Source: a virus
Lineage: Duplodnaviria > Heunggongvirae > Uroviricota > Caudoviricetes
IMG/VR virus record: IMGVR_UViG_2663762648_000013
Direction: 5' to 3' (one strand)
Length of the DNA: 61,430 bases
The number at the start of each line of letters is the position of its first letter. Position 1 is the first letter of the stretch. The position numbers and the translations under genes were made by a program. The notes under the pieces are model-generated. The model had not been told where the DNA came from. It searched no databases and saw only the letters and a list, made by a program, of their open reading frames with translations. This document shows, one piece after another, positions 1 to 42,392 of this stretch.

Positions 1-414
1 GATGTCGGGCTTTACGTCAGGGGACGGTTGCTTATTGATGATGATCCCCTCGCAAAACGCGCACATGCACACATGAAGGCCGGTTCGTTAACCGGCCTTT
101 CTATTGGGTACGTCCTGAAAGACTGGGAATACGACCGGAGCAAAGAAGCCTTTCTGCTGAAAGAAATCGACCTCTGGGAAGTCAGCCTGGTGACGTTCCC
201 GTCTAACGACGAGGCGCGGATCAGCGACGTCAAGAACGCACTGGCCCGCGGGGAAATCCCCGAACAGAAAAAAATCGAAAGAGTCCTGCGTGATGTCGGA
301 CTCTCCCGTACCCAGGCCAAAGCATTCATGGCCGGGGGCTATGGCGCACTGTCCCTGCGCGACGCTGAGGATGTGGGCTCTGCACTGAATGCACTGAAAA
401 ATCTAAACTTCTAA
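1..414 (+). CDS. prohead protease (HK97 family), C-terminal part; 5' end outside window
   Basis: Frame open from nt 1 to stop at 412-414; translation (...VSLVTFPSNDEARI...) resembles HK97-type prohead protease; lies directly upstream of the capsid gene. Confidence 0.55.
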   Translation, partial: DVGLYVRGRLLIDDDPLAKRAHAHMKAGSLTGLSIGYVLKDWEYDRSKEAFLLKEIDLWEVSLVTFPSNDEARISDVKNALARGEIPEQKKIERVLRDVGLSRTQAKAFMAGGYGALSLRDAEDVGSALNALKNLNF

Positions 415-428
415 TCAGGAGAAATACG

Positions 429-1634: not shown

Positions 1635-1642
1635 TCATTCAG

Positions 1643-1664
1643 GGGGCGCAGAAGTGCGCCCCCT
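1643..1664 (+). terminator. GC-rich stem-loop after capsid gene (gggggcgca-gaag-tgcgccccc)
   Basis: Perfect 9-bp inverted repeat 9 nt after capsid stop; no strong U-run, so may be a partial terminator or RNA stability element. Confidence 0.4.
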
Positions 1665-1685
1665 GTTCTGACAGGTGAAAGAATC

Positions 1686-1874
1686 ATGATCCTGAAACAA
1701 GATCTGAAATGGTCACCGGACGGTATGCGTGTTGAGATTATTCGGGCCGGTGAGTATGAAGATAAAGAATTACCCGAACGGGTACGCGAAATTGCCACTG
1801 CAGCTGGGATTGTCTCTGATAAGAGAACACCTGTTGCGCGGGGGGCTGATAAGTCTAAAAAACAGCATTCATAG
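1686..1874 (+). CDS. hypothetical small head-region protein (62 aa)
   Basis: ORF in track between capsid and connector genes; no recognisable motif. Confidence 0.35.
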   Translation: MILKQDLKWSPDGMRVEIIRAGEYEDKELPERVREIATAAGIVSDKRTPVARGADKSKKQHS

Positions 1875-1885
1875 AGGTTGCCCAA

Positions 1886-2191
1886 ATGATGCCCACTCTG
1901 GAAGAGCTTCGTGTTCAGTGCCGGATTGATGATGACAATGAACAGGAGAATTCTCTTCTTATGATGTATCTGGCTGCTGCCAGGGAAGAGGCTGAAAAGT
2001 TTTTAAACCGGACGCTTTACGATGAAACTGTTTCTGAGCAGGATACGACCGGGCTTGTAATAACACCTCTGATAAAACTGCGTCTTATGCAACTGGTTGG
2101 CTACTGGTACGAGAACAGGGAAATGCAGGATGCAGTGCCTGATTTTTTCTATACCGGACTGCGGATGTATCGATTTCATCCCGGAACATAG
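1886..2191 (+). CDS. head-tail connector protein (gp6-like)
   Basis: 101-aa ORF; sequence and position typical of HK97-type head-tail connector. Confidence 0.6.
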   Translation: MMPTLEELRVQCRIDDDNEQENSLLMMYLAAAREEAEKFLNRTLYDETVSEQDTTGLVITPLIKLRLMQLVGYWYENREMQDAVPDFFYTGLRMYRFHPGT

Positions 2192-2199
2192 GAGGACTC

Positions 2200-2538
2200 A
2201 TGCAGGCAGGAAGATTACGTGATCGTGTGGTTATTCTGAATGCCACCACCGTTCGGTCTCCGTCAGGGCACCCTGTGGAAACAATGACGGAGGGGGCAAC
2301 CATATGGGCAGAAGTTAAGGGGATCAGTGGCAGGGAGAGAATATCCGGAGGCGCAGAAACTGCTCAGGCTACAGTGAGGGTCTGGATGAGATTCCGGCGA
2401 GATGTAACAGCAACTTCATGTCTGAAAGTGCTGACTGGTGCATTCAAAGGCGCGATTCTGAGTATAGACGGTCCGCCGATACCGGATGCTCGTGCCACAC
2501 GGCTTGAGATACTCTGTTCTCAGAAGGGGAATGTGTGA
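2200..2538 (+). CDS. head closure / head-tail adaptor protein
   Basis: 112-aa ORF, SD aggagg upstream; position after connector. Confidence 0.6.
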   Translation: MQAGRLRDRVVILNATTVRSPSGHPVETMTEGATIWAEVKGISGRERISGGAETAQATVRVWMRFRRDVTATSCLKVLTGAFKGAILSIDGPPIPDARATRLEILCSQKGNV

Positions 2539-2984
2539 TGGATTTCAGTCTTGATTTTTCAGGTCTGGCGGATATTGCACGGGATCTGGAGACGCTCAGC
2601 AGGGCAGAAAACAATAAGGTACTGCGCGATGCCACCCGTGCCGGTGCTGAAGTTATGCGGGATGCAGTTGTTGAACGTGCGCCGGAGCGAACCGGGAAAC
2701 TGAAGAAAAATGTGGTTGTTCTCACTCAGCGTTCAAAGCGTCGGGGGGAAATTATCTCGGGTGTCCACATTCGTGGACGGAACCTGCGAACCGGAAACAG
2801 TGATAACAGCATGAAAGCCAGTGATCCCCGAAATGCGTTTTACTGGCGCTTTGTGGAGCTGGGAACGATAAACATGCCCGCGCATCCGTTCATTCGCCCG
2901 GCTTTCGATACGACAGAGGAACTGGCAGCACAGATTGCCATACAGCGAATGAATCAGGCTATTGATGAGGTCTTAAGTAAATGA
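2535..2984 (+). CDS. HK97 gp10-family tail component
   Basis: 149-aa ORF; APERTGKL-type motif typical of HK97 gp10 family. Confidence 0.6.
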   Translation: MMDFSLDFSGLADIARDLETLSRAENNKVLRDATRAGAEVMRDAVVERAPERTGKLKKNVVVLTQRSKRRGEIISGVHIRGRNLRTGNSDNSMKASDPRNAFYWRFVELGTINMPAHPFIRPAFDTTEELAAQIAIQRMNQAIDEVLSK

Positions 2985-3325
2985 GAGAGACCACACTGTA
3001 TTCCCTGCTGTCTCAACTGGCCGGAGGACAGGTTTATCCTTATGTGGTCCCGCTGACGGAGGGAAAGCCTGCGGTATCTCCGCCATGGCTGGTATTTTCT
3101 GTGGTGTCTGACACTGCGTCTGATGTGCTTGATGGTCAGGCTGAATCCAGAATTACCGTGCAGATCGATGTCTGGGCAACAGTACCTGATGACGCAGATG
3201 ATATCCGTGAGCAGGCGCTTGATGCGGTAAGGCAACTTGCACCCTCCGTTATTTCTAAAACTCAGGGTTATGATCCTGATTCCCGTCTGAGCAGAGCCAC
3301 GCTTGAATTTCAGGTAATAGCCTGA
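2981..3325 (+). CDS. tail completion / tail terminator protein (DUF3168-like)
   Basis: 114-aa ORF overlapping neighbours by 4 nt; position before major tail gene. Confidence 0.5.
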   Translation: MRETTLYSLLSQLAGGQVYPYVVPLTEGKPAVSPPWLVFSVVSDTASDVLDGQAESRITVQIDVWATVPDDADDIREQALDAVRQLAPSVISKTQGYDPDSRLSRATLEFQVIA

Positions 3326-3384
3326 GGTCGTTAATGATTTTACCCACCCGCCGCTGGCGGGGTTTTTATTTTCAGGAGACGAGT

Positions 3385-4089
3385 ATGTCCTCTAATTTTG
3401 AGCGTTCGCAACTGACGAAAATTATGATTTCGTCTGCACCGGTAACAGCAGAAACCCTGGATTCTGCCAGCTATCTTGGCCTGAGCTGTACAATCAAAGA
3501 GGTGCAGTTTACCGCAGGACAAAAGCAGGATATTGATGTCACCACGCTGTGTTCTGTTGAGCAGGAAAATATTAACGGCCTTGGTGCCGCGTCAGAGATT
3601 TCCATGTCAGGCAACTTTTACCTCAATGCTGCCCAGAACGCGTTGCGCAGTGCCTATGACAATGACACCACGTATGGCTTTAAAGTTATTTTTCCGTCAG
3701 GCAACGGATTTACCTTTATGGCAGAGGTGCGTCAGCATACCTGGTCTGCAGGAACTAATGGTGTTGTGGCTGGAACGTTTTTCCTGCGCCTGAAAGGTAA
3801 ACCTGTGCTGACGACAGAGCCGCTGAAAGTGAAGGTCGATTTAAACAGCACGCTGCAGGTTTCTGCCGGAGCGAAACTCGAAATGGTGGTTGAGGCTGCC
3901 GGTGGTGTGCCGCCTTATTCTTATGTCTGGAAGAAAGGTAGTTCTCCTGTTTCCGGACAGACGGCGGCAACATTCAGTAAGGCATCAGCAGCATCAGGTG
4001 ATGCCGGTGCGTATACCTGCGAGATTTCTGATTCAGCAAGCCCTGTTAACAAGGTGACCTCCACTTCCTGCACTGTTACCGTCAGTTAA
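3385..4089 (+). CDS. major tail protein with C-terminal Ig-like domain
   Basis: ORF 3334-4089, start moved to ATG at 3385 preceded by caggagacgagt SD; C-terminus (VPPYSYVWKKG...AGAYTCEI) is Ig-like. Confidence 0.7.
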   Translation: MSSNFERSQLTKIMISSAPVTAETLDSASYLGLSCTIKEVQFTAGQKQDIDVTTLCSVEQENINGLGAASEISMSGNFYLNAAQNALRSAYDNDTTYGFKVIFPSGNGFTFMAEVRQHTWSAGTNGVVAGTFFLRLKGKPVLTTEPLKVKVDLNSTLQVSAGAKLEMVVEAAGGVPPYSYVWKKGSSPVSGQTAATFSKASAASGDAGAYTCEISDSASPVNKVTSTSCTVTVS

Positions 4090-4475
4090 TGAGGATAGAT
4101 GTGATGACTAAAAATATCCGCAATCTGGCACTGGCAACGATGTCGGGGTTTCGCCATAAAACTGTTGATGTGCCTGAATGGGAAGGGGCAACGGTTGTAT
4201 TACGGGAACCTTCTGCAGAAGCCTGGTTGCGCTGGCAGGAGATCGTTAAAGCAAAAGATGATGAGACACCGTTATCCGTTGCGGAGCGCGCCCGCCGAAA
4301 TCTGGAGGCAGATGTTGAACTGTTCATTGATGTTCTGTGTGATACCGGACTGCAACCTGTATTTTCAGAGGATGATCGTGAACAGGTGATTGCCGTGTAT
4401 GGCCCGGTGCATGCGCGGCTTCTTCGGCAGTCTCTGGAACTGATCAGTGATGCCGGCGAGGTTAAAAAAAAGTAG
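4089..4475 (+). CDS. tail assembly chaperone (gpG-like)
   Basis: 128-aa ORF directly upstream of tape measure; ends in slippery run GTT AAA AAA AAG TAG. Confidence 0.7.
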   Translation: MRIDVMTKNIRNLALATMSGFRHKTVDVPEWEGATVVLREPSAEAWLRWQEIVKAKDDETPLSVAERARRNLEADVELFIDVLCDTGLQPVFSEDDREQVIAVYGPVHARLLRQSLELISDAGEVKKK

Positions 4476-4777
4476 AGCTTCCGGGGATGCGTTTTCTGAT
4501 GATGCTGGCGCTCAGGATCGGGCGCACATTGTCAGAGTTACGCCGGGAAATGTCCGCATCAGAAATCATGATGTGGGCAGAATTTGACAGGTTCAGCCCG
4601 CTGGGTGACGAGCGGGCTGATATCCGGGCTGCCCAGATAGTTTCTGCGGTTTACGGTGCGCAGGGTGTCAAAGTCCCACTGAATGATGCGCTTCTTCAGT
4701 GGGAACAAGAGCAGACAGAAGGCGTCTCAGATCCATTTGCCGGACTGGAAAACGCGCTTTTAATAGTGTCTCAGTGA
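4089..4777 (+). CDS. tail assembly chaperone G-T fusion, predicted programmed -1 frameshift at A_AAA_AAG (4466-4472)
   Basis: -1 frame is open from 4466 to stop at 4775-4777; heptamer A AAA AAG lies in-frame at the end of G; matches the conserved G/GT arrangement of long-tailed phages. Confidence 0.6.
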
Positions 4778-4785
4778 GTCAACAT

Positions 4786-4806
4786 AACCGCTTCGGCGGT
4801 TTTTTT
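4786..4806 (+). terminator. rho-independent terminator-like hairpin between GT and tape measure genes
   Basis: aaccgc-ttcg-gcggtt followed by T6 (4802-4807). Confidence 0.5.
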
Positions 4807-4816
4807 CGTCCGGAGA

Positions 4817-7800
4817 ATGAGTGTGGCGACATTACGTGAACTGATTATTAAAATCTCGGCAAATTCCCGGTCATTCCAGTCAGAGATCTCCCGGGCTTCG
4901 CGTATGGGGCAGGATTACTACCGTACCATGCAGAACGGAGGCCGGCAGTCCGCTGCTGCATCCCGTGAAATGCGGCGTGCACTGGCAGAAGTGACGGATC
5001 AGATAAATACAGCTAAATCTTCGGCACTGAATATGGCGGGGGCATTTGCCGGAGCTTTTGCTACCGGTCATCTTATTTCTCTCGCCGATGAGTGGAATTC
5101 AGTAAATGCCCGTCTGAAGCAGGCTTCACAGTCCAGTGATGATTTTCAGGTATCACAACGTGAATTAATGGCAATCAGCCAGAGAACGGGAACGGCGTTT
5201 TCTGATAACGCCAGCCTTTTTGCCCGCTCTGCAGCTTCCATGCGGGAGTATGGCTACAGTTCTGAGGAGGTACTGAAAGTCACCGAGGCGATCTCCACGG
5301 GCCTGAAATTATCCGGTGCCAGTACAGCAGAAGCCAGTTCGGTGATCACGCAGTTCAGTCAGGCACTGGCGCAGGGAGTGCTGCGCGGTGAAGAATTTAA
5401 CTCTGTGAATGAGAACGGCGATCGTGTTATTCGTGCGCTGGCTGCGGGAATGGGTGTTGCCCGTAAGGATCTGAAGGCCATGGCGGATAACGGAAAACTG
5501 ACCGCCGATAAGGTTGTTCCTGCACTGATTAGTCAGCTTGGGGCGTTGCGTGATGAATATGCAGCAATGCCTGATACTGTTTCATCCTCTGCAACCAAAG
5601 TTGAAAACGCCTTTATGGCCTGGGTTGGTGGTGCGAACGAGGCAAGCGGAGTGACAAAGACACTCACCGGGGTGTTGAATGGTGTTGCAGACAATATTGA
5701 TACCGTGGCTGCTGCAGCTGGCGCACTGGTTGCCGTCGGGGTAGCCCGATATTTTGGCAATATGGCGTCGTCTGCTGGATCTGCAACTGCCGGATTAATT
5801 ACTGCAGCCAGAAACGAAGTGGCTCTTGCTGAAGCGCAACTTCGGGGGACACAGATAGCAACCGCCAGGGCGCGTGCGGCGGTTTATCGTGCGCAACAGG
5901 CGGTTGTTGCTGCTCGCGGTACCGAAAGGCAGGCCGCAGCAGAAGCGAAGCTGACAGCTGCCCAGGCGTCACTTACCCGTAATATTGCGGCCAGAACAGC
6001 GGCACAGACAACGCTGAATACTGTCACGTCAGTGGGGAGTCGTCTGTTAAGTGGTGCGCTGGGGTTGGTTGGTGGTGTGCCGGGACTCGTCATGCTGGGG
6101 GCGACGGCCTGGTACACGATGTATCAGAATCAGGAGCAGGCCAGAGAATCTGCACGCCAGTATGCCGCAACAATCGACGAAATTCGCCAGAAAACGTCGG
6201 CAATGTCGCTTCCTGAAGCGTCAGATAATGAGGAAATGACGCGGCAGGCACTTGATGAGCAAAACAGGTTAATTGACGAGCAGAAAAGTAAGATTAAATC
6301 CTTACAGGAAAAAATTGCTGGCTATCAGTATGTGCTGGCAAACCCGGGCTGGACAACCGATAACGGTTTTATGATTAACCACATGACGTCGGTAAAAACT
6401 GTCACAGAAGGGCTTGCAGAAGCAACAAATCAACTGGCAGTTGAACAGTCCCGTCTCACACAAATGCAGGGCAAAGCGCAATCCATTCAGGATGTGCTTG
6501 CCGGGCTGGAGGAGCGACGGGTGGCGTTGATCCGTCAACAGGCCGCGGAACAAAACAAAGCGTATCAGTCCCTGTTGATCATGAATGGGCAGCATACCGA
6601 GTTTAATCGCCTTCTCGGGCTCGGTAATGAATTACTTCAGCAGCGACAGGGGCTGGTGAATGTACCGTTACGGCTACCACAGGCAACCCTGGATGATAAA
6701 CAGCAGACTGCACTGAATAACAGCGAGCGCGAACTGGCTCTGTCCCGCCTGAAGGGGGAAGCCCGTGAGCGTGCCCGCTTGGGTTATGCTGCGGATGATC
6801 TCGGCTTTGTGGGAGAGGCGTATCAGACAGCCAGGCAGAATTATATCAATAACTCACTGGATGCCTGGCGAAATAACCAGGCAAATAAACCCAAAGCGCA
6901 TAAAAAGACCGAAGCGGAAAAAACAGAAGATATTTATAAACGGCTGATTAAACAGCAAAAAGAACAAATAGCACTGGCAGGGCAGAATACTGAACTGGCT
7001 AAGATGAAATATCAGGTCAGTCAGGGCGAATTATCAACCCTGTCAGAAGCGCAGAAAAAAACGCTTTTGCAGAATGCAGCACTCATCGACCAGAAAAAGA
7101 TTCGTGAGCAGCTTGCTGCGTATGAGAGCAGTCTGGCGGACAGTAATGCCAGTGCCCGGGCATCTGACGAAGCGCAGTTGTTGGGATATGGTGAAGGCTC
7201 ACGGATGCGTGAACGACTCCAGGAAATGTGGAGTATCCGGCAGGCGTTTGAGCAGAAAAATAACGAGCTGCTGAGACAGTATCAGGCCGGAGAAATTGAA
7301 GAAGCCCTGTGGAAACAGGAGAAAGAACTGAATAAAAAATATCTGGAAGAGCGTCTCAGCGATCAGCAGAATTATTATGCAAAGGCCGATGCTTTACGTA
7401 ATAACTGGAATGCCGGACTCCAGGAGGGACTGACCAACTGGGCAGACAGTGCCACCGATTATGCTTCACAGGCGGCAGATGCTGTCGTTTCCACGATGGA
7501 CGGGCTGGTATCAAATATTTCCGATGCACTGGCCGGAAATGTTGTGGACTGGAGAAACTGGGGGAGTTCAATTCTCCAGGAAGTTTCAAAAATTCTGATG
7601 AACGCTGCCATCGTTAACGGGCTGAAGTCACTTTCCAAAAGCATGTCCGGTGCCGGAGGATGGCTTGGTACAGTCGGCGACTGGCTTTCCGGTGCAGTGG
7701 CAAACGCAAAAGGTGGTGTTTACACATCGGCAAATCTGAGTGCTTACAGTAACACTATTGTGGATACACCGACGTATTTTGCTTTTGCGAAAGGTGCCGG

Positions 7801-8062
7801 GTTGATGGGCGAGGCCGGGCCTGAAGCAATCATGCCACTGACACGGGCAGCGGACGGCTCTCTTGGGGTCAGGGCCATTGGAAATGTGAATGGTGGCGGT
7901 GGATTTGTTTATTCTCCCGTGTATCACATCAGCATTCAGAATCAAGGGAGCAATGGCGAGATAGATGCGCGCTCAGCCAGGGGACTGGTGGATCTGATCG
8001 ACAGCAGGGTTGTGTCAATTATGCAGTCATCGCGTCGGGATGGAGGATTGTACAGTGCCTGA
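4817..8062 (+). CDS. tail tape measure protein
   Basis: 1081-aa ORF, coiled-coil and Ala/Gln-rich, position after G/GT. Confidence 0.9.
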   Translation: MSVATLRELIIKISANSRSFQSEISRASRMGQDYYRTMQNGGRQSAAASREMRRALAEVTDQINTAKSSALNMAGAFAGAFATGHLISLADEWNSVNARLKQASQSSDDFQVSQRELMAISQRTGTAFSDNASLFARSAASMREYGYSSEEVLKVTEAISTGLKLSGASTAEASSVITQFSQALAQGVLRGEEFNSVNENGDRVIRALAAGMGVARKDLKAMADNGKLTADKVVPALISQLGALRDEYAAMPDTVSSSATKVENAFMAWVGGANEASGVTKTLTGVLNGVADNIDTVAAAAGALVAVGVARYFGNMASSAGSATAGLITAARNEVALAEAQLRGTQIATARARAAVYRAQQAVVAARGTERQAAAEAKLTAAQASLTRNIAARTAAQTTLNTVTSVGSRLLSGALGLVGGVPGLVMLGATAWYTMYQNQEQARESARQYAATIDEIRQKTSAMSLPEASDNEEMTRQALDEQNRLIDEQKSKIKSLQEKIAGYQYVLANPGWTTDNGFMINHMTSVKTVTEGLAEATNQLAVEQSRLTQMQGKAQSIQDVLAGLEERRVALIRQQAAEQNKAYQSLLIMNGQHTEFNRLLGLGNELLQQRQGLVNVPLRLPQATLDDKQQTALNNSERELALSRLKGEARERARLGYAADDLGFVGEAYQTARQNYINNSLDAWRNNQANKPKAHKKTEAEKTEDIYKRLIKQQKEQIALAGQNTELAKMKYQVSQGELSTLSEAQKKTLLQNAALIDQKKIREQLAAYESSLADSNASARASDEAQLLGYGEGSRMRERLQEMWSIRQAFEQKNNELLRQYQAGEIEEALWKQEKELNKKYLEERLSDQQNYYAKADALRNNWNAGLQEGLTNWADSATDYASQAADAVVSTMDGLVSNISDALAGNVVDWRNWGSSILQEVSKILMNAAIVNGLKSLSKSMSGAGGWLGTVGDWLSGAVANAKGGVYTSANLSAYSNTIVDTPTYFAFAKGAGLMGEAGPEAIMPLTRAADGSLGVRAIGNVNGGGGFVYSPVYHISIQNQGSNGEIDARSARGLVDLIDSRVVSIMQSSRRDGGLYSA

Positions 8063-8396
8063 GCCTGAAGTTTTTAACTGGATCCCCCGTGAGGGGATGG
8101 AGACGACACGAAAGCCATCAGTTATTACGGTAAAGTTTGGTGACGGATATGAACAGCGACGGGCTGGTGGTCTGAATGCGGATCTGAAAACGTTTAAACC
8201 GGTATTTCGTGTCACAGATGAATATTCCCGTGCCGCGCTGGACAGTTTTTTATCCCGTCATGCCGGGATTCGTGCTTTTTTGTGGCGTCCGCCAAAACAC
8301 AACAGGACTGTCCGGGTTGTCTGCAGGGAGTGGAGCATTTCGGATAATGCCATGTATACCGATTTTAACTGTACCTTTGAAGAGGTCACTCACTGA
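8040..8396 (+). CDS. minor tail protein M (lambda gpM-like)
   Basis: ORF 8010-8396; start set to ATG 8040 (or GTG 8055); FGDGYEQR motif as in lambda M. Confidence 0.8.
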   Translation: MEDCTVPEPEVFNWIPREGMETTRKPSVITVKFGDGYEQRRAGGLNADLKTFKPVFRVTDEYSRAALDSFLSRHAGIRAFLWRPPKHNRTVRVVCREWSISDNAMYTDFNCTFEEVTH

Positions 8397-9094
8397 TGCA
8401 GGATATACAGCAGGAAACACTCAATGAGTGCACTAAAACGGAGCAATCCGCGCTGGTCGTGCTCTGGGAAATTGATCTGACAGAGGTCGGCGGAGATCGT
8501 TATTTCTTCTGTAATGAGCAGAACGAAAAAGGTGAACCAGTCACCTGGCAGGGGCGGCAGTATCAGGCTTATCCCATTCAGGGAAGCGGATTTGAGATGA
8601 ACGGCAAAGGAGCCAGTGCAAGGCCAACGCTTAAAGTCTCTAATCTGTACGGCATGGTCACCGGGATGGCGGAAGACCTGCAGAGTCTGGTCGGCGGAAC
8701 GGTGGTCAGGCGTAAGGTTTACGCCCGTTTTCTGGATGCGGTGAACTTCGTCAACGGAAACAGTGACGCCGATCCGGAGCAGGAGGTGATCAGCCGCTGG
8801 CGCATCGAGCAGTGCAGCGAACTGAGCGCGGTGAGTGCCTCCTTTGTACTGTCCACGCCGACGGAAACGGATGGCGCTGTTTTTCCGGGGCGTATCATGC
8901 TGGCCAACACCTGCACCTGGACCTATCGCGGCGATGAGTGCGGTTATCACGGTCCGGCTGTCGCGGATGAATATGACCAGCCGACGTCCGATATCACGAA
9001 GGATAAATGCAGCAAATGCCTGAGCGGCTGTAAGTTTCGCAATAACGTCGGCAACTTTGGCGGCTTCCTTTCCATTAACAAACTTTCGCAGTAA
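8396..9094 (+). CDS. minor tail protein L (lambda gpL-like)
   Basis: 232-aa ORF; matches my recollection of lambda L nearly throughout ([12 protein letters not shown]...SINKLSQ). Confidence 0.9.
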   Translation: MQDIQQETLNECTKTEQSALVVLWEIDLTEVGGDRYFFCNEQNEKGEPVTWQGRQYQAYPIQGSGFEMNGKGASARPTLKVSNLYGMVTGMAEDLQSLVGGTVVRRKVYARFLDAVNFVNGNSDADPEQEVISRWRIEQCSELSAVSASFVLSTPTETDGAVFPGRIMLANTCTWTYRGDECGYHGPAVADEYDQPTSDITKDKCSKCLSGCKFRNNVGNFGGFLSINKLSQ

Positions 9095-9099
9095 ATCCC

Positions 9100-9458
9100 A
9101 TGACAGAGACAGAATCAGCGATTCTGGCGCACGCCCGGCGATGTGCGCCAGCAGAGTCGTGCGGCTTCGTGGTGAGAACGCCGGAGGGGGAAAGATATTT
9201 TCCCTGCGTGAATATCTCCGGTGAGCCGGAGGCGTATTTCCGGATGTCGCCGGAGGACTGGCTGCGGGCAGAGATGCAGGGTGAGATTGTGGCGCTGGTC
9301 CACAGCCACCCCGGTGGTCTGCCCTGGCTGAGTGAGGCTGACCGGCGGCTGCAGGTGCAGAGTGATTTGCCGTGGTGGCTGGTCTGCCGGGGGGCGATTC
9401 ATAAATTCCGCTGTGTGCCGCATCTCACCGGGCGGCGCTTTGAGCACGGGGTGACGGA
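9100..9458 (+). CDS. tail tip assembly protein K (MPN/JAB + NlpC/P60), N-terminal fragment truncated at N (9459)
   Basis: MTETESAILAHARRC...HSHPGG motif; sequence breaks at the single N. Confidence 0.65.
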
Positions 9459-9459
9459 N

Positions 9460-9785
9460 ATGTTTGCCGACGTGATGGTCCGGGTGATCGGCGTGTCATA
9501 TTTCACTTCCGTACCCAGCACCGTCTCGGAGCCGGAGGATTCAAACCCCTCCGGCGGTGACTGCTCCTGCTCACCTGCCCGGAACACCACCGTGACGCCG
9601 GAGATGTTGGTATTCCCCTCATTGTCCAGCACCGGCGTACTGTTCAGCAGCACGCTTTTTAATCCATCCACCGGACCTTCAACCGGCCCTTCACTGATGG
9701 CATCGATCACACTCAGCAGCTGCGTGGACTTCAGGTTGTCCTTCGCTTCGCGCGGGGTATGCCCCTTACTGCTGCCTTTACCCAT
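9460..9785 (-). CDS. tail tip protein J, N-terminal fragment (inverted relative to K)
   Basis: Minus-strand translation MGKGSSKGHTPREAKDNLKSTQLL... equals the gpJ N-terminus; interrupted at N 9459. Confidence 0.65.
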
Positions 9786-9845
9786 TCCTCACGCTCCATA
9801 AACGACAAAACCGCCCGCAGGCGGTTTCTCATAAAACATTTTGCA

Positions 9846-10493
9846 TCAGCGACCAATCACCACAACCTGACCACCATCCCCTTCGTCTGCCGTGCTGATC
9901 TCCTGAGAAACCACACGTGACCCCACGCGCATTTCCCCGTACAGAACAGGCAGAACATTACCCTGGGCAACCATGTTATCCAGTGACGAGAAATACGTGT
10001 TCTGTTTGCCGTTATCTGTACTGGCTGCCGTGGGCGTCCTGGCTTTCGGTGCCAGCATCTGCGCCACACCACCCAGGATCATACTGGCCCCTGCTGCATA
10101 CATACCCGATACAGCCGCGGCCCCCAGCCAGCCCACAGGGTTCCACCATGCCACCGCAATCAGCGCCGCACCCAGCACTGCCTGAAAAATACCGCCACTT
10201 TTGGCACCCGCCAGACGCGGAACGATGTGGATCACGGCACCATTTGCCAGCGGTTCATTAAGACGGGCAGATAATTCATTTTCGCCTGCATCACGCCCGG
10301 CAATGCGCACCTGATACCAGCCGTCGCTCAGTTTCTGACGAAATGCCGGGAGCTGTGTGGCCAGTGCCCGGATGGCTTCGGCCCCCGTTTTCACACGAAG
10401 GTCGATGCGGCGGCCAAATCGCTGCAAATCCCCGTAAAGGCAGATGCGTGCCATGCCCGGTGACGCCAGAGGGAGTGTGTGCGTCGCTGCCAT
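9846..10493 (-). CDS. tail assembly protein I (lambda gpI-like)
   Basis: 215-aa ORF MAATHTLPLASPGMARICLYGDLQRFG... Confidence 0.8.
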   Translation of the reverse strand: MAATHTLPLASPGMARICLYGDLQRFGRRIDLRVKTGAEAIRALATQLPAFRQKLSDGWYQVRIAGRDAGENELSARLNEPLANGAVIHIVPRLAGAKSGGIFQAVLGAALIAVAWWNPVGWLGAAAVSGMYAAGASMILGGVAQMLAPKARTPTAASTDNGKQNTYFSSLDNMVAQGNVLPVLYGEMRVGSRVVSQEISTADEGDGGQVVVIGR

Positions 10494-10984
10494 TTGTCGG
10501 TGTACCTCTCTCGTTTACTCAGTTGTTCAGGAATATGGTGCAGCAGCTCGCCGTCACCACAGTAAATGGCGGCATGATTCGGCACCGATGAACCAAAACA
10601 GCACAGCAGCACGTCGCCAGGCTGCGCCTCTGTCAGTGGGACACGGTAAAAACCCGTTGCCTCCATATTGTCAAGATAGAGATTCTGGCCGTGACGCCAC
10701 CAGTCATCCCCGCGATGAAAATCCGGCATCTCAATTCCCGCCAGATGGTAAGCGTCCCGGAACAGCGTGTAACAGTCCGTCACCCCGTGCTCAAAGCGCC
10801 GCCCGGTGAGATGCGGCACACAGCGGAATTTATGAATCGCCCCCCGGCAGACCAGCCACCACGGCAAATCACTCTGCACCTGCAGCCGCCGGTCAGCCTC
10901 ACTCAGCCAGGGCAGACCACCGGGGTGGCTGTGGACCAGCGCCACAATCTCACCCTGCATCTCTGCCCGCAGCCAGTCCTCCGG
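10391..10984 (-). CDS. tail tip assembly protein K, C-terminal fragment (truncated at N 10985)
   Basis: NlpC/P60-like C-terminal part of K, overlaps I by ~100 nt as in the intact copy. Confidence 0.65.
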   Translation of the reverse strand, partial: PEDWLRAEMQGEIVALVHSHPGGLPWLSEADRRLQVQSDLPWWLVCRGAIHKFRCVPHLTGRRFEHGVTDCYTLFRDAYHLAGIEMPDFHRGDDWWRHGQNLYLDNMEATGFYRVPLTEAQPGDVLLCCFGSSVPNHAAIYCGDGELLHHIPEQLSKRERYTDKWQRRTHSLWRHRAWHASAFTGICSDLAAASTFV

Positions 10985-10985
10985 N

Positions 10986-11473
10986 AAGGCACCAGTACGC
11001 GCCCCACGCTGATGGTTTCTAACCTGTACGGTATGGTCACCGGGATGGCGGAAGATCTACAGAGTCTGGTCGGCGGAACGGTGGTCCGGCGTAAGGTTTA
11101 CGCCCGTTTTCTGGATGCGGTGAACTTCGTCAACGGAAACAGTGACGCCGATCCGGAGCAGGAGGTGATCAGCCGCTGGCGCATTGAGCAGTGCAGCGAA
11201 CTGAGCGCGGTGAGTGCCTCTTTTGTACTGTCCACGCCGACGGAAACAGATGGCGCTGTTTTTCCGGGACGTATCATGCTGGCCAACACCTGCACCTGGA
11301 CCTATCGCGGCGATGAGTGCGGTTATCACGGTCCGGCGGTCGCGGATGAATATGACCAGCCAACGTCCGACATCACGAAGGATAAATGCAGCAAATGCCT
11401 GAGTGGCTGTAAGTTTCGCAATAACGTCGGCAACTTTGGCGGCTTCCTTTCCATTAACAAACTTTCGCAGTAA
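10986..11473 (+). CDS. minor tail protein L, C-terminal fragment (begins after N 10985)
   Basis: Near-identical to the 3' part of L at 8396-9094. Confidence 0.65.
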
Positions 11474-11478
11474 ATCCC

Positions 11479-12222
11479 ATGACAGAGACAGAATCAGCGA
11501 TTCTGGCGCACGCCCGGCGATGTGCTCCAGCGGAGTCGTGCGGCTTCGTGGTAAGAACGCCGGAGGGGGAAAGATATTTCCCCTGCGTGAATATCTCCGG
11601 TGAGCCGGAGGCGTATTTCCGTATGTCGCCGGAAGACTGGCTGCAGGCAGAGATGCAGGGTGAGATTGTGGCGCTGGTCCACAGCCACCCCGGTGGTCTG
11701 CCCTGGCTGAGTGAGGCCGACCGGCGGCTGCAGGGGCAGAGTGATTTGTCGTGGTGGCTGGTCTGCCGCGGGGCGATTCACAAGTTCCGCTGTGTGCCGC
11801 ATCTCACCGGGCGGCGCTTTGAGCACGGGGTGACGGACTGTTACACGCTGTTCCGGGATGCTTACCATCTGGCGGGGATTGAGATGCCGGATTTTCATCG
11901 TGAGGATGACTGGTGGCGTCACGGTCAGAATCTCTATCTGGATAATCTGGAGGCCACAGGGCTGTATCAGGTGCCGTTGTCAGCGGCGCAGCCGGGCGAT
12001 GTGCTGCTGTGCTGTTTTGGTTCATCGGTGCCGAATCATGCCGCCATTTACTGTGGTGACGGCGAGCTGCTGCACCATATTCCTGAACAACTGAGCAAAC
12101 GAGAGAGGTATACCGACAAATGGCAGCGACGCACACACTCCCTCTGGCGTCACCGGGCATGGCACGCATCTGCCTTTACGGGGATTTGCAACGATTTGGC
12201 CGCCGCATCGACCTTCGTGTGA
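11479..12222 (+). CDS. tail tip assembly protein K (MPN/JAB + NlpC/P60), intact copy
   Basis: 247-aa ORF with HSHPGG (JAB) motif and Cys/His NlpC/P60-like C-terminus. Confidence 0.85.
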   Translation: MTETESAILAHARRCAPAESCGFVVRTPEGERYFPCVNISGEPEAYFRMSPEDWLQAEMQGEIVALVHSHPGGLPWLSEADRRLQGQSDLSWWLVCRGAIHKFRCVPHLTGRRFEHGVTDCYTLFRDAYHLAGIEMPDFHREDDWWRHGQNLYLDNLEATGLYQVPLSAAQPGDVLLCCFGSSVPNHAAIYCGDGELLHHIPEQLSKRERYTDKWQRRTHSLWRHRAWHASAFTGICNDLAAASTFV

Positions 12223-12441
12223 AAACGGGTGCCGAAGCCATCCGGGCGATGGCCACACAGCTCCCTGCGTTTCGTCAGAAGCTGAGCGACGGCTGGTATC
12301 AGGTGCGTATTGCCGGGCAGGATGTTAGCACGTCCGGATTAACGGCACAGTTACATGAGGCTCTGCCTGACGGCGCTGTGATTCATATTGTTCCCAGAGT
12401 CGCCGGGGCCAAGTCAGGTGGTGTATTCCAGATTGTCCTGG
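12120..12441 (+). CDS. tail assembly protein I, N-terminal fragment (truncated at N 12442)
   Basis: Duplicate of I start; sequence breaks at N. Confidence 0.55.
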
Positions 12442-12519
12442 NGCTGTGGACCAGTGCCACAATCTCACCCTGCATCTCTGCCTGCAGCCAGTCTTCCGGC
12501 GACATACGGAAATACGCCN

Positions 12520-12922
12520 TGAGCACGGGGTGACGGACTGTTACACGCTGTTCCGGGATGCTTACCATCTGGCGGGGATTGAGATGCCGGATTTTCATCG
12601 TGAGGATGACTGGTGGCGTCACGGTCAGAATCTCTATCTGGATAATCTGGAGGCCACAGGGCTGTATCAGGTGCCGTTGTCAGCGGCGCAGCCGGGCGAT
12701 GTGCTGCTGTGCTGTTTTGGTTCATCGGTGCCGAATCATGCCGCCATTTACTGTGGTGACGGCGAGCTGCTGCACCATATTCCTGAACAACTGAGCAAAC
12801 GAGAGAGGTATACCGACAAATGGCAGCGACGCACACACTCCCTCTGGCGTCACCGGGCATGGCACGCATCTGCCTTTACGGGGATTTGCAACGATTTGGC
12901 CGCCGCATCGACCTTCGTGTGA
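12520..12922 (+). CDS. tail tip assembly protein K, C-terminal fragment (after N 12519)
   Basis: Duplicate of 11830-12222. Confidence 0.55.
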
Positions 12923-13491
12923 AAACGGGTGCCGAAGCCATCCGGGCGATGGCCACACAGCTCCCTGCGTTTCGTCAGAAGCTGAGCGACGGCTGGTATC
13001 AGGTGCGTATTGCCGGGCAGGATGTTAGCACGTCCGGATTAACGGCACAGTTACATGAGGCTCTGCCTGACGGCGCTGTGATTCATATTGTTCCCAGAGT
13101 CGCCGGGGCCAAGTCAGGTGGTGTATTCCAGATTGTCCTGGGAGCAGCCGCCATTGCCGGATCATTCTTTACCGCCGGAGCCACCCTTGCAGCATGGGGG
13201 GCTGCCATTGGTGCCGGTGGTATGACCGGCATTCTGTTTTCTCTCGGTGCCAGTATGGTGCTCGGCGGTGTGGCTCAGATGCTGGCACCGAAAGCCAGAA
13301 CTCCCCGCACACAGACAACGGATAACGGTAAGCAGAACACCTATTTCTCCTCACTGGATAACATGGTTGCCCAGGGCAATGTTATGCCTGTTCTGTATGG
13401 TGAAATGCGCGTGGGGTCACGTGTGGTATCTCAGGAGATCAGCACGGCAGACGAAGGGGATGGTGGTCAGGTTGTGGTGATTGGTCGCTGA
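12820..13491 (+). CDS. tail assembly protein I (lambda gpI-like), intact copy
   Basis: 223-aa ORF with Gly/Ala-rich hydrophobic middle segment. Confidence 0.85.
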   Translation: MAATHTLPLASPGMARICLYGDLQRFGRRIDLRVKTGAEAIRAMATQLPAFRQKLSDGWYQVRIAGQDVSTSGLTAQLHEALPDGAVIHIVPRVAGAKSGGVFQIVLGAAAIAGSFFTAGATLAAWGAAIGAGGMTGILFSLGASMVLGGVAQMLAPKARTPRTQTTDNGKQNTYFSSLDNMVAQGNVMPVLYGEMRVGSRVVSQEISTADEGDGGQVVVIGR

Positions 13492-13551
13492 TGCAAAACA
13501 TTTTATGTGAAACCGCCTGCGGGCGGTTTTGTCGTTTATGGAGCGTGACGA

Positions 13552-13790
13552 ATGGGTAAAGGCAGCAGTAAGGGGCATACCCCGCGCGAAGCGAAGGACA
13601 ACCTGAAGTCCACGCAGCTGCTGAGTGTGATCGATGCCATCAGCGAAGGGCCGGTTGAAGGTCCGGTGGATGGATTAAAAAGCGTGCTGCTGAACAGTAC
13701 GCCGGTGCTGGACAGTGAGGGGAATACCAACATCTCCGGCGTCACGGTGGTGTTCCGGGCAGGTGAGCAGGAGCAGTCACCGCCGGAGGG
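13552..13790 (+). CDS. tail tip protein J, N-terminal fragment (truncated at N 13791)
   Basis: MGKGSSKGHTPREAKDNLK...; preceded by hairpin aaaccgcctgcgggcggtttt. Confidence 0.65.
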
Positions 13791-13791
13791 N

Positions 13792-14267
13792 TCCGTTTCC
13801 GTCGGCGTGGACAGTACAAAGGAGGCACTCACCGCGCTCAGTTCGCTGCACTGCTCGATGCGCCAGCGGCTGATCACCTCCTGCTCCGGATCGGCGTCAC
13901 TGTTTCCGTTGACGAAGTTCACCGCATCCAGAAAACGGGCGTAAACCTTACGCCTGACCACCGTTCCGCCGACCAGACTCTGCAGGTCTTCCGCCATCCC
14001 GGTGACCATGCCGTGCAGATTAGAGACTTTCAGCGTTGGCCTTGCACTGGCACCTTTGCCGTTCATCTCAAATCCACTCCCCTGAATGGGATAGGCCTGA
14101 TACTGCCGACTCTGCCAGGTGACAGACTCTCCTTTCTCGTTCTGCTCATTGCAGAAAAAGTAGCGATCCCCGCCTACCTCGGTCAGGTCGATTTCCCAGA
14201 GCACCACGCTGGCCGACTGCTCCGCACGAATGCATTCATTCAGCGTTTCCTGTTGTATGTCCTGCAT
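13792..14267 (-). CDS. minor tail protein L, N-terminal part (second prophage; truncated at N 13791)
   Basis: Minus-strand [25 protein letters not shown]... Confidence 0.7.
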
Positions 14268-14605
14268 CAGATCACCACTTCGTCAAACTGACACGAAAAA
14301 TCGGTATAGGTGATATGTTCTGTCGCTGACCACGTTCGACACACCACTCTGATTTTTCTGTTAATACCCGGCGGGCGCCAAAAAAAAGATTTATAGCCTT
14401 CATGCCGGGCTAAAAATTTTTCAAATGAATCACGTTCATTCGCCTCAACTTTGAAATCACAGGTGAAAACGCGCAGAGAATGATTAAGTCCATTTGGACT
14501 TCGTTGCTCATAACCATCACCAAATCTTACAGTTTTTATCGATGGTTTATTTTCTGTTTTCATTCCATCCTCTGGTAACCAGTGAAATTCTTCCGTATTA
14601 GCCAC
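14267..14605 (-). CDS. minor tail protein M (lambda gpM-like)
   Basis: 112-aa ORF with FGDGYEQR motif; follows tape measure. Confidence 0.8.
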
Positions 14606-17600
14606 TTAACATTCCCCCATCACGTCGCATATTTAACAGATTGCCCTGCACCCGCTGATCAACCATCCCCATAAGTGCTTTTATTGCCTGAGGGCCAATC
14701 TCTCCATTCTGGCCGTCATTTTGAATAGTGATTTGGTATACAGGGGCATAGGTAATATCTCCGCCTCCATTACCACTTTTACTATTAATAGCTCTGACAC
14801 CAAGAGAACCATCGGAAGTTCGTGTTAATGGCATAATGGCTTCCGGTCCAGCCTCACCAAAAACACCAGCCCCTTTTGCAAAAGCAAAAAATTGCGGGGA
14901 ATCATAAATACCGTTCGAATACGTGCTCAATGACGGAGACTCATAAACACCGCCCTTTGCATTCGGAATAAATTTACTAATAGCACTCCCGATAGTTCCT
15001 AAAATCCCCCCAGAAGAACTGTTACTAATGCTGTCGAAAATCCCAGTAATTGAAGCCTTTAATGCTATTCGACTAAGATCCGAAATCACGGAAGTAGCGA
15101 AAGAACGAAAATTTGCCTTGCCTGTCGTGACAAAATCACCCAGCGCATCGGTCATCCCATCAAACATCTGAGTCGTGGTTGATTTTATCTGCTCACTGAT
15201 ATCCTTAGTGTCATCCAGCCAGTTATTGAATCCCTGGGAGGCACCACTAACCCAGTCTCCTGCCTGAATATCGAGCTGCTCGTTTTTCTGTCTGACAATT
15301 TCTTTTTCCCGTTCCAGAGCATCATTCAGAGCCTGCATTTTCTCTTGAAAAACATGATCTGACATTCCACGGGATTTATCTGCATAGTCACGTTCAAGTT
15401 GCAGACGCTGATTGTTATATCCATGTTCAATCCGCAGTAATTCCTGCTGGCGTTGCTGATTTTTATCGCCAACCCCATAACCAGCAATCTGAATATCATA
15501 CCCCTGCTGACGATTATCAATCGAAGCCTGCAATGAATCACGCCATGCTGTTATTTCGGCGGATTCCTTGATTAGCCTGTTATTTTTTTCAATCGCAACA
15601 TTTTTCTCCATCAACGTGGTTATTTCTTCCCGGTGTAAGAGAAGCGATTTCTGATCCTGGGTTAATTTCGATGATGGTCGTGACTCTAGGTCGGCAATCC
15701 GCTGACGCCACTTAACCAGTTCCTGTTCAGAGGAACTTAATTTAACGGTCAACTCAGCTTGTGAACTTAGTAACGCATTCTGTTGATTCAGATGATCAAT
15801 CATTCGTTGGGCTGCATCATCAGAATAACCTTTCGCCTTTGGTTGCTTTGGATCTTTATAACGCTCATTTATTTGAGCGATAAGATTATTATATTCTTCC
15901 TTTGAATACTGATTCTTTAGCTTTTCCAGTTTTGCAAGTTCACTAGCTCTCTGCTGCTCCCGGGTCTGATATTGTTTTGAAAAGGCATCTGCTCTCTGTC
16001 TGAGTTCAATTCCTTCCTGTTGTCGCTTGTTGTAATCGTTTATTGATGAATTTAGTACGTCCTGAGCAATTTTTTCTGCTTGAAGTACGCCCAATTGCTG
16101 CTTTAATCGTGCCAGCCTTTTATTTTGAGCTCCGCCATCTCCAATGCCACCTAACCCGAAAACTCCGGGTCGGGTATTTTTTTCTATTTCATCAATTTGA
16201 CGGAGAACATCTGAGATTTTTTGATCAAGGGAGGCCTCACGGCCAATATCCAGCATGGAATCCCATGCCCATTTTGCGGAGTCTGCGACAGCTTTCCATG
16301 CAGTCTCAAGATAACCAAGATTTTCTTTAATCTGGTTGGTGCGCTGGATCATTGAGGATGAGTATTCTTCTGTCGCAATGCGGGCGGCCTCCTGCTGGTT
16401 CCCTTCATCCTGTAGCGCCTTAATCTGGTTATAAGTCGCAAGTGTCAGAAAATGGTACTGATCATTAAGTTTTGATATGGCACTGACAGGATCCTTTGCA
16501 ATTTCATTGAAGTCATTAACCAGTTGTTCGGTTGATATTCCTGTTACTTCGCTCGTTTTTACTATCGCTGTCGTCACTTGCTCCAGCGAACTGCTCGCTA
16601 CCTTTCCCGAACGCACAAGCTGATTTAATACTGCCGCCGCAGCACCAGTTGTCGAATCAGCCGCATTCCCGGCACGTTGAGCTATATCGCCCAATTGCCC
16701 GCTGGTTGTCCCCAACTGATTTCCGGTAAGAATAAGAGATTTATTAAATTCGTCCTGCTCCTGAGAGCCTTTATAGTAAGCCAGTCCTAAGACCCCAACG
16801 GCTGCTGCGGCCAGGGTAAAAGGATTAATTAATCCCAGCACATAAGAACCTACACCTTTGATCGCCGGGCCAATCCCACCGAACATATCTTTTAGCTGGC
16901 CGCCCTGCTGCATTAACACCATAAATGGCGACTGACCAGTGGACAACCCAACAACAATATCCGTCATTTGTACAGGCAACATGCGCATAGCAAAAGCCGT
17001 TTGTTTTGCCGACATTCCGGTTTTGCTTAATTGTGATTGAGTAACCTCAAGCTCACTCCGCATAGCACGAAGTTTTCCAGAAAGCTCCTCATACATTTCA
17101 GGAGAAAGCATCCCCTTAGCTTTTGCTTCATTGAGCTGTTTCTGTTGTTCTACCAGACGATTAAAAGCAGTTCCGACAGGATCAAGTTGAGCAATCAGAC
17201 GTTGCAAAGCAACAACCTGTTCATCATGCGCTTTTGCTGCTTCTCGCTCTGCCTGAGCCTCTCCGGTAAGCTCTCGCCGTGTTTCCTGTATTTTTCGGCT
17301 ATAATTCTCAAACTGAGAACCATTTATTTTCCCGGATGCAAACGCAGCATTAAGTTCATCATGCTGTTGTTCAAGATTTCTTAGCGCCGCAGCCAGAGGG
17401 TCGATCTTGTCCAGCATTCTTTGAAAGGCCTGAGCCTGCGCTTCCTGCTGGGCGGCAGCAAGTTTTCCGGCCTTCTCGGCTTCTCTCTGCGCTTGCGCAA
17501 CCCCGCTCAATTCCTCTGTGGTTTCATTAAGTTTACGGACAAGAAATTCATATTCTTCTTTATCAATAAGCCCTTTATCGAAAAATTTCTTTAATTCAGA

Positions 17601-17831
17601 ATAGCGTCGACCGACAGTATCAATTGCGGCACCAACTGGATCAATAGCTGCTTTTAATTTTGCGAGCGCGTTCTTCTCATCTTCTGTTGCCTTAGTCACT
17701 TTCCCTGCGCTATTTGCAGCAGTTTCCCCAGCCTGCGTCATTTTGACTAATGAGGAGGTCAGATTGTCAGCATTATTTTTCGCTCCAGTGCTATCAATAA
17801 TTATTGCGAGACGCGAGGTTTGCTCTGCCAT
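14598..17831 (-). CDS. tail tape measure protein
   Basis: 1077-aa coiled-coil-rich ORF; SD GGAG upstream. Confidence 0.9.
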
Positions 17832-40884: not shown

Positions 40885-41022
40885 AACCTGCCTCCTTAAA
40901 CTAACATACCATGAGCCAGCAATGTCCGCTATTGGCACAAAGCGGACAACCACGCTAGCTCTCCCCTGTGCCAGAAAAATGTCAATTTACATATGAACTA
41001 ATGCTCTTTGATCTAGTAACGT

Positions 41023-41439
41023 CTATAAATACCGAAGATTTCCTTGATAAAATGCCAGTACACGTTTCATAACTTCACTCTTCCGGCACTCGCGACAGAT
41101 TATGTTCTGACGCCTGTCATAGCGGCGTATTTCTCCGTCTGGTAATGACCAGATAAGGTCAGGATCAACCACAACCGTTTTTTTCACCTTTGCCCTGGAT
41201 AGTTTTTTGCGGGCGTTTTTCCAATCCTTACGAGCCTGTTCAGACGGGAATAACCCGTAGCCAGAGTTGTATACATCCCCACTGGCAACCAGCTCTCTGG
41301 CGAGAACGCTTATTAAATATCTTGTCGCCCCGGTTTTAGCTTCCAGTTGTCGTAACGTCTCGCGCCCACTCTGGCGTACGAGTTCAACAACCTGCCCCTT
41401 AATTTTTTCCCGCTCTTCCTGTGTAAATACTTTTGCCAT
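41023..41439 (-). CDS. winged-helix DNA-binding protein (138 aa), prophage early region
   Basis: N-terminal HTH-like segment; C-terminal CRECRK; three diverged paralogues in window. Confidence 0.55.
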   Translation of the reverse strand: MAKVFTQEEREKIKGQVVELVRQSGRETLRQLEAKTGATRYLISVLARELVASGDVYNSGYGLFPSEQARKDWKNARKKLSRAKVKKTVVVDPDLIWSLPDGEIRRYDRRQNIICRECRKSEVMKRVLAFYQGNLRYL

Positions 41440-41454
41440 AAGCGCCCCCGGCAA

Positions 41455-42391: not shown

Positions 42392-42392
42392 N

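Follow-up and report, generated by a model that had tools for sequence, protein, structure and literature searches.

In phage lambda, the tail-tip module consists of gpM-gpL-gpK-gpI-gpJ and is followed by lom, stf, and tfa. The biology underlying the region described here is well known: E. coli with at least three lambdoid prophages that carry near-identical, mosaic tail-tip genes. The Rac-type prophage of E. coli, whether defective or intact, occupies the ttcA/intR-sit locus, and its representative in NCTC10444 carries intR, recET, sieB, ydaSTUV, trkG, and lysis, head, and tail genes. Draft assemblies of E. coli have been documented to fail because lambdoid prophages resemble one another (PMC4587872). 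In mis-scaffolded drafts of poly-lysogenic E. coli (e.g., those with O157/STEC lambdoid prophages), near-identical modules break the assembly.

We analyzed a stretch of 61,430 nucleotides, referred to as the window, in which the tail-tip region at 9.1 to 14.3 kb departs from the lambda and Rac-type arrangements. Compared with the lambda module, the gene order is scrambled, J stops at codon 80 to 108, and lom, stf, and tfa are missing. Compared with the NCTC10444 Rac-site prophage, to which two segments of the window (F and I) are 99.9 to 100% identical, the copy in the window is cut in L at its tail end, and additional variant contigs (G and H) enlarge its replication region. As in mis-scaffolded drafts, near-identical modules appear to have broken the assembly, contigs end in shared sequence, unrelated prophages are joined through shared repeats, and open reading frames at the joins are chimeric. 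Nothing material differs from the usual case, although the window is unusually tidy in its interleaved series and single-N joins. We consider it very probable that the region is a scaffolding artefact involving at least three lambdoid prophages in a short-read draft of E. coli. The tail-tip jumble is ordinary and not a biological feature.

The window contains exactly eight non-ACGT characters, every one a single N. Counting them confirmed the five that the first-pass annotation had placed in the tail-tip region. The features are as follows.

1-9458, plus strand: segment A, prophage 1
4817-8062, plus strand: tape measure, prophage 1
8010-8396, plus strand: M, prophage 1
8396-9094, plus strand: complete gpL (minor tail protein L), prophage 1, segment A; PHROG phrog_18/4199 over its full length
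9100-9458, plus strand: 5' part of gpK (aa 1 to about 120), truncated where segment A ends
9459: single N, join 1; K position 7458 (plus) meets J position 8798 (minus)
9460-10984, minus strand, opposite to A: segment B (1525 bp), with J aa 1-108, complete I, and K aa 51-247
9785-9462, minus strand: J aa 1-108, segment B (tblastn)
10394-9849, minus strand: I aa 1-190, segment B (tblastn)
10984-10394, minus strand: K aa 51-247, segment B (tblastn)
10985: single N, join 2; K 7250 (minus) meets L 6608 (plus)
10986-12441, plus strand: segment C (1456 bp), with L aa 72-232, complete K, and I aa 1-74
10988-11470, plus strand: L aa 72-232, segment C (tblastn)
11479-12222, plus strand: complete K, segment C (tblastn, aa 1-247 at 11479-12219)
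12219-12440, plus strand: I aa 1-74, segment C (tblastn)
12442: single N, join 3
12443-12518, minus strand: segment D, a 76-bp K fragment, aa 46-69 (tblastn match 12514-12443)
12519: single N, join 4
12520-13790, plus strand: segment E (1271 bp), with K aa about 115-247, complete I, and J aa 1 to about 80; continues C
12506-12919, plus strand: K aa 110-247, segment E (tblastn)
12919-13491, plus strand: complete I, segment E (tblastn, aa 1-190 at 12919-13488)
from 13552, plus strand: J aa 1 to about 80, segment E (tblastn)
13791: single N, join 5; J 8711 (plus) meets L 6872 (minus)
13792-42391, minus strand: segment F, prophage 2
13792-14267, minus strand: gpL aa 1-158, prophage 2, truncated where segment F starts (tblastn, 14267-13794)
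14267-14605, minus strand: gpM-like, prophage 2
14598-17831, minus strand: tape measure, prophage 2
9100-9801, 10691-11473, and 13536-14267: chimeric "fusion" open reading frames, with similar ones at 42-51 kb
42392, 45815, and 51010: single Ns further right, in the replication module

Reference M, L, K, I, and J proteins tile positions 9100 to 14267 completely in tblastn. Between the Ns lie whole and partial lambda-type copies of L, K, and I and the first 80 to 108 codons of J, on both strands, much as had been described; the earlier figure of about 80 J codons holds for the plus-strand stub in segment E and falls short for the minus-strand stub in segment B, which has 108. Homology to the M/L/K/I/J families is clear (PHROG E values of 1e-37 to 1e-162; tblastn identities of 76 to 100%), and in protein sequence the pieces share 75 to 100% identity with canonical M, L, K (C40 peptidase), I, and the J N terminus. 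The sole complete L copy, at 8396-9094 just left of the region's start at 9100, matches L aa 1-232 at 100% in tblastn, and the K match beyond it covers aa 1-122 (plus strand, 9100-9465). In self-BLAST, the tail-tip copies are 86 to 100% identical among themselves. When the J, Lom, Stf, and Tfa proteins of three reference prophages were compared with the window, only the two J N-terminal stubs were matched, in agreement with the reported absence of a J body and a side tail fiber gene.

Each N-delimited segment gives one end-to-end colinear alignment to the canonical M-L-K-I-J locus, and all five strand flips or coordinate jumps relative to that locus fall exactly at the five Ns. The segments form two convergent colinear series that are perfectly interleaved: A, C, and E read from L to J on the plus strand, and B, D, and F read from J to L on the minus strand, with the gpM-like gene and tape measure of prophage 2 converging on the prophage 1 tail module. 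As written, order and orientation are scrambled, and the canonical arrangement with a full-length J (about 1,130 to 1,160 aa) and lom/stf/tfa is not found.

Tail-related DNA in both orientations is a property that the window shares with the invertible tail-fiber segments of the Gin/Cin/Pin type, and one of its segments is flanked by inverted repeats, as might be expected of programmed invertible or shufflon-like DNA that switches tail-tip or host-range genes. In those systems, however, an invertase acts on fiber C-terminal cassettes. The window contains neither: L/K/I/J homology accounts for all of 9.1 to 14.3 kb, a tape-measure gene lies to the left and another to the right, and no recombinase gene is present. 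The flipped pieces are the tip-assembly genes L, K, and I and the J N terminus rather than alternative fiber C termini, the repeats are 200 to 600 bp of coding homology rather than short crossover sites, and the breakpoints all lie at Ns. We give this explanation practically no weight; the missing recombinase and the position of the breakpoints at Ns effectively rule it out.

Of the 14 interior segment ends, eight terminate in sequence repeated exactly (63 to 986 bp) in another segment, with terminal repeats of 209, 622, 63, 75, and 223 bp in the tail-tip region and of 986, 602, and 472 bp around the Ns of the replication module. The last 209 bp of A (9250-9458) are the exact reverse complement of 10776-10984, an overlap that leads from A on the plus strand into B on the minus strand. 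The last 622 bp of C (11820-12441) recur without a difference at the start of E (12520-13141), and the first 223 bp of F (from 13792) are the exact reverse complement of 8649-8871 within the L gene of A. With the self-BLAST identities, the 209- and 622-bp overlaps bear out the earlier remark that the segments are near-identical to other copies. D differs by one base from the copy of K in C and ends exactly 63 bases beyond that variant base.

Merging the pieces through these overlaps (A with the reverse complement of B, and C with E) brings back full K and I reading frames in canonical order, and the reverse complement of B is the natural sequence continuation of A. Merged A and B are found as a single colinear piece in 882 complete E. 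coli genomes, and merged C and E are found as a single colinear piece in 4,284.

The same repeats could be read as traces of real events. In that reading, two tail-to-tail prophages would have suffered J-distal deletions and repeated inversions and partial duplications by recombination between their modules, and the Ns would be ambiguous base calls. The perfect 209-bp inverted repeat around B has the geometry of an invertible or recombining segment, and the direct repeat of 622 bp on either side of D has that of a tandem duplication; moreover, lambdoid prophages do recombine, as the mosaic L gene of F shows. Against this, when inverted prophages recombine by homology, the chromosome between them is flipped while each L-K-I-J-lom-stf series stays intact, and J would not be cut at codons 80 to 108. 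Nor is there a recombinational rationale for a free-standing, inverted 76-bp fragment of K. All five breakpoints carry an N, while the only other Ns in the window lie at three analogous breakpoints, which is not expected of real junctions.

Finished genomes speak to the same question. We searched 5,426 finished genomes with 600-bp queries spanning the Ns. As written, joins 1, 2, and 5 were spanned by none of them. Among the best matches listed for these joins, exactly one half of the query aligned at 99 to 100% identity and ended at the N; for join 1, the matches listed covered the J-side half at 100% and stopped at the N. For joins 3 and 4, the two plus-strand pieces aligned to exactly 622 bp of the matched record with their order permuted, leaving D uncovered. 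The 7-kb region as written was found at 80% or more in none of the 5,426 genomes and in none of 50,697 phage records, and a 42-mer spanning an N had no match in any of three contig collections (viral, genome-representative, and metagenome).

The two flanking prophages themselves match complete genomes at 99.9 to 100%. Segment A is 99.9% identical to a prophage of E. coli N51, where the sequence continues as L-K-I-J(3480 bp)-lom-stf-tfa-zinT, and the reverse complement of B matches N51 exactly over 428 bp that span the end of A. The exact overlap and the synteny with N51 support continuity from A into the reverse complement of B. Segment F is 100% identical over 14.2 kb to the NCTC10444 Rac-site prophage, which continues as L-K-I-J(3414 bp)-lom-stf-tfaR-sitDCBA. 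The chromosomal sites of the two relatives differ, with prophage 1 on the zinT side and prophage 2 at the Rac/sit site.

A real convergent fusion of tail modules, in which nested inverted and direct partial L-K-I-J(5') duplications and the loss of both host-recognition regions would be a scar of repeated recombination and the Ns would happen to mark low-quality bases at each breakpoint, is hard to reconcile with these comparisons: the region is colinear in none of the phage records, joins 1, 2, and 5 occur in none of the 5,426 finished genomes, and the nearest finished relatives keep both phages complete beside different chromosomal genes. We regard such a rearrangement as very unlikely, both as a history of recombination and as a scar of fusion. 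It would be modestly interesting inter-prophage recombination debris if true; the inversion or deletion that the first-pass annotation had offered as its alternative finds no support here. By contrast, its preferred reading, scaffolding or repeat collapse, is supported by the breakpoints at Ns, the exact overlaps, the colinear merged loci, and the canonical relatives.

That reading had invoked two prophages with near-identical tail-tip genes. The shared genes stand, and the number does not: at least three tail-tip sequence contexts are present in the window, which points to three or more lambdoid tail-tip loci in the source genome. Segment C, at 95.7% identity to A, represents a second haplotype and differs from both A and F. 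Segments B, C, and E are only 96 to 98% identical to the best finished genomes, so any assignment of the small contigs to prophages is tentative; B is also 96.6% identical, in the same orientation, to the NCTC10444 copy of prophage 2.

Sequence logic and comparison together lead us to infer a mis-join, which could have arisen as follows. The source would be a short-read draft whose L-K-I-J(5') tail-tip genes are 86 to 100% identical between prophages. The assembler would have left these repeats unresolved, yielding the short contigs B, C, D, and E that end inside shared sequence. A scaffolder would then have linked the unrelated unique contigs A (prophage 1 head-tail, plus strand) and F (Rac-site prophage 2, minus strand) through the shared repeat contigs and put one N at every join without an estimated gap, so that contigs of the A-C-E series came to alternate with those of the B-D-F series. 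Neither phage would have lost its J body, lom, stf, and tfa, which would instead lie on other contigs or outside the scaffold. Several scaffolders insert one N between contigs that they predict to be adjacent or overlapping. The link was presumably made through paired ends or the assembly graph, and the identity of the assembler is likewise a matter of inference: the end of D 63 bases past its variant and the length of all terminal repeats, at least 63 bp, would fit a de Bruijn assembler run at k=64, a suggestive match on which the artefact reading does not depend.

Single-N spacers between unmerged, overlapping pieces, both here and at 42 to 51 kb, would also be left by a downstream pipeline that concatenated or reference-ordered separate contigs, with order and orientation carrying no linkage information. 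The absence of the junction string from all searchable public collections also speaks for this explanation. However, the contigs are not sorted by length, and they are placed thematically, tail-tip pieces between tail modules and replication pieces in the replication module, which implies that linkage or homology information was used. Reference-guided ordering is an unlikely source of the layout, given that pieces of one locus have mixed orientations. On balance we find concatenation very unlikely; whether the pieces were concatenated or scaffolded, the conclusion that the region is an artefact is unchanged.

Where an open reading frame runs across an N, only a portion of it matches tail-protein profiles, so such frames are chimeras. 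The one at 9100-9801, for example, fits K profiles only at aa 1-126, and its remainder is chimeric. Annotators should be cautious with this record, from which chimeric "fusion" open reading frames would be called, tail-fiber-less or rearranged prophages would be wrongly inferred, and two unrelated prophages would be read as one 60-kb element.

The three Ns of the replication module (42 to 51 kb) behave like those of the tail-tip region. One single-copy stretch of NCTC10444 is covered by segments F, G, and I, whose overlaps were left unmerged, and H is an additional variant. A further jump, at about 48809-48818, carries no N. As a separate observation on segment F, its L gene is a mosaic in which the last 223 bp are identical to the L gene of A and the rest is about 75% identical.

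The window contains exactly eight non-ACGT characters, every one a single N. Five of these (9459, 10985, 12442, 12519 and 13791; joins 1 to 5) were reported in the first-pass annotation, and three more lie at 42392, 45815 and 51010. Together they divide the window into nine segments, A to I. As a mapping reference we used the canonical tail-tip locus in the complete genome ETEC4090 (L 6397-7095, K 7100-7843, I 7840-8412, J 8473-11886).

Segments between the single Ns: window coordinates, length, strand and reference span
A: 1-9458, 9458 bp, plus, ETEC4090 up to 7458
B: 9460-10984, 1525 bp, minus, ETEC4090 8798 to 7250
C: 10986-12441, 1456 bp, plus, ETEC4090 6608 to 8062
D: 12443-12518, 76 bp, minus, ETEC4090 7305 to 7235
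E: 12520-13790, 1271 bp, plus, ETEC4090 7441 to 8711
F: 13792-42391, 28600 bp, minus, ETEC4090 from 6872 onward; extends to NCTC10444 locus position 14987
G: 42393-45814, 3422 bp, NCTC10444 locus 13301-16252
H: 45816-51009, 5194 bp
I: 51011-61430, 10420 bp, begins at NCTC10444 locus 15391

The tail-tip region (9100-14267) sits between convergent tail modules, with tape measure genes at 4817-8062 (plus) and 14598-17831 (minus). According to PHROG scans and tblastn searches with reference proteins, its entire content is lambda-type L, K, I and J N-terminal sequence, complete or partial, on both strands, and self-BLAST finds the copies 86 to 100% identical to each other, as the first-pass annotation had described in all essentials. 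As members of the lambda M-L-K-I-J tail-tip family, they are unremarkable. A programmed invertible segment is excluded, as the region lacks any recombinase gene and the nature of the flipped genes (L, K, I and the J N-terminus) argues otherwise. When J, Lom, Stf and Tfa from three reference prophages were compared with the 61 kb, the only matches were two J N-terminal stubs, in agreement with the earlier observation that the J body and side tail fibre are absent:

9785-9462, minus, J amino acids 1-108 (tblastn)
from 13552, plus, J amino acids 1 to about 80 (tblastn)

The earlier estimate of about 80 codons thus holds for the second stub and falls short for the first. Long open reading frames at 9100-9801, 10691-11473 and 13536-14267 pass through single Ns and would be called by gene callers; each joins a genuine tail-protein fragment to antisense sequence of the adjacent contig. 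Tail-protein profiles cover just part of each frame, indicating that they are chimeras.

Segments A to F each align to the ETEC4090 locus over their full length as one colinear stretch; therefore, all strand changes and coordinate jumps among them lie at Ns and nowhere else. In window order, A, C and E form an ascending colinear series and B, D and F a descending one, the two perfectly interleaved. At eight of the 14 interior segment ends, the terminal sequence is repeated exactly in another segment (209, 622, 63, 75, 223, 986, 602 and 472 bp). Among these, A overlaps the reverse complement of B by 209 bp, C overlaps E on the same strand by 622 bp, and the initial 223 bp of F are the exact reverse complement of a stretch in the L gene of A. 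Once A is merged with the reverse complement of B, and C with E, through these overlaps, intact K and I frames return; the merged pieces occur as single colinear stretches in 882 and 4,284 complete E. coli genomes, respectively.

As written, the 7-kb region is colinear (at least 80% in one place) in none of 5,426 complete E. coli genomes and in none of 50,697 phage records. For 600-bp queries with join 1, 2 or 5 at their midpoint, no complete E. coli genome spans the query, and the best listed matches cover exactly one half at 99 to 100% and end at the N. The query for joins 3 and 4 scores 83% merely because two same-strand pieces are reported jointly; these lie in permuted order inside exactly 622 bp of the record, the length of the C/E overlap, and leave D uncovered. 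A real convergent fusion of prophages with nested inversions and duplications is disfavoured by the absence of joins 1, 2 and 5 from finished genomes and by an N at every breakpoint; moreover, homologous exchange between inverted prophages would keep full modules rather than J stubs, and the 76-bp inverted K scrap (D) has no recombinational logic.

The tail-tip mosaic is no real feature, and very probably reflects a short-read assembly broken at prophage repeats and then mis-scaffolded. The scaffolding or repeat artefact proposed at first pass is supported by the colinearity of every piece, breakpoints at Ns, exact overlaps, canonical merged loci, the lack of joins 1, 2 and 5 in finished genomes, and relatives that keep the canonical gene order. 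Lambdoid prophages are hard to assemble from draft data (PMC4587872). A short-read assembler would have stopped at near-identical prophage repeats, and a scaffolding step could then have linked the unique contigs A and F via repeat contigs common to several prophages, with one N inserted between contigs predicted to touch or overlap; we found no documentation of such a single-N convention in the literature searched. The interleaved order may stem from links across the repeats they share, either read-pair or graph-based. Plain concatenation or reference ordering in place of read-pair scaffolding is possible and would have the same outcome, namely, that order and orientation are not biological. 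D stops 63 bases beyond its single variant base and all terminal repeats are at least 63 bp, which might fit k = 64 but is only a hint as to the assembler.

Aligned in gene orientation, the pieces form two main haplotypes downstream of L, A with the reverse complement of B and C with E; D differs from the latter by one base. At reference positions 6624-6683, A, C and F carry three distinct sequences, which puts the number of lambdoid tail-tip loci in the source genome at three or more, as is normal in E. coli (median, 3 to 6 matching places per genome). This is more than the two source prophages originally proposed. B shows about 96.6% identity to the N51 copy and to the NCTC10444 copy alike, and for this reason the small contigs (B to E) are not assignable to individual phages from sequence alone.

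Over 14.2 kb, the tail-head part of F shows 100.0% identity to a prophage in the genome of E. coli NCTC10444, and segment I matches that genome at 100% as well. In NCTC10444, the genes after L are K, I, J (3,414 bp), lom, a tail fibre gene (3,072 bp), tfaR and then chromosomal sitDCBA. Segment A shares 99.9% identity with a prophage in strain N51, in which K, I, J (3,480 bp), lom, stf, tfa and then zinT come after L; the reverse complement of B matches N51 exactly over 428 bp, crossing the end of A. These gene orders indicate that both phages are complete and adjoin different chromosomal genes in their nearest finished genomes. The convergent placement of the phages and the seeming loss of the J body belong to this record alone.

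The left-hand phage has an HK97-type head and lambda-type tail, and the right-hand phage is a Rac-site lambdoid prophage. The latter (F and I, window 13792-61430) carries intR, recE, recT, sieB, kilR, ydaSTUV, trkG and essD-rrrD lysis genes, retains a full head-tail morphogenesis module and is 99.9 to 100% identical to NCTC10444; in strain FORC_081, a deletion that extends into sitB truncates the same prophage at the small terminase. Its L gene is mosaic: its final 223 bp, up to where the contig stops, are identical to L of the left-hand phage (window 13792-14267 versus 8396-8871), while upstream L, M and the tape measure are just about 75% identical (M, 50% at the protein level). NCTC10444 carries the same sequence, which marks the boundary as a genuine product of recombination between lambdoid phages.

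The Ns at 42392, 45815 and 51010 fall in the replication module of the Rac-site prophage (ydaU/primosomal, ydaV/DnaC-like, DUF1627 and DUF977 genes), and this cluster (40271-52499) is the same artefact. Together, F, G and I cover a stretch that is single-copy in NCTC10444, with their overlaps left unmerged, and H is an additional variant. That a second repeat family behaves alike supports an assembly-wide property over a local biological event. In the cluster, the ydaV/DnaC-like loader and ydaU/primosomal genes are present in three to four copies, complete or truncated, and the DUF977, DUF1627 and phrog_17908 genes are duplicated. Within H, a coordinate jump at about 48809-48818 carries no N: H covers NCTC10444 locus 15294-16652 and restarts at 15596, an apparent tandem repeat of about 1,057 bp (ydaV 3'/ydaU 5') with copies 95.8% identical. 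In the best-matching complete genomes, each half matches at 100%, as two permuted pieces over 1,057 bp. The jump, which yields a 346-amino-acid fusion frame at 48188-49228, probably marks a chimeric contig that went unflagged, but could be a real tandem duplication.
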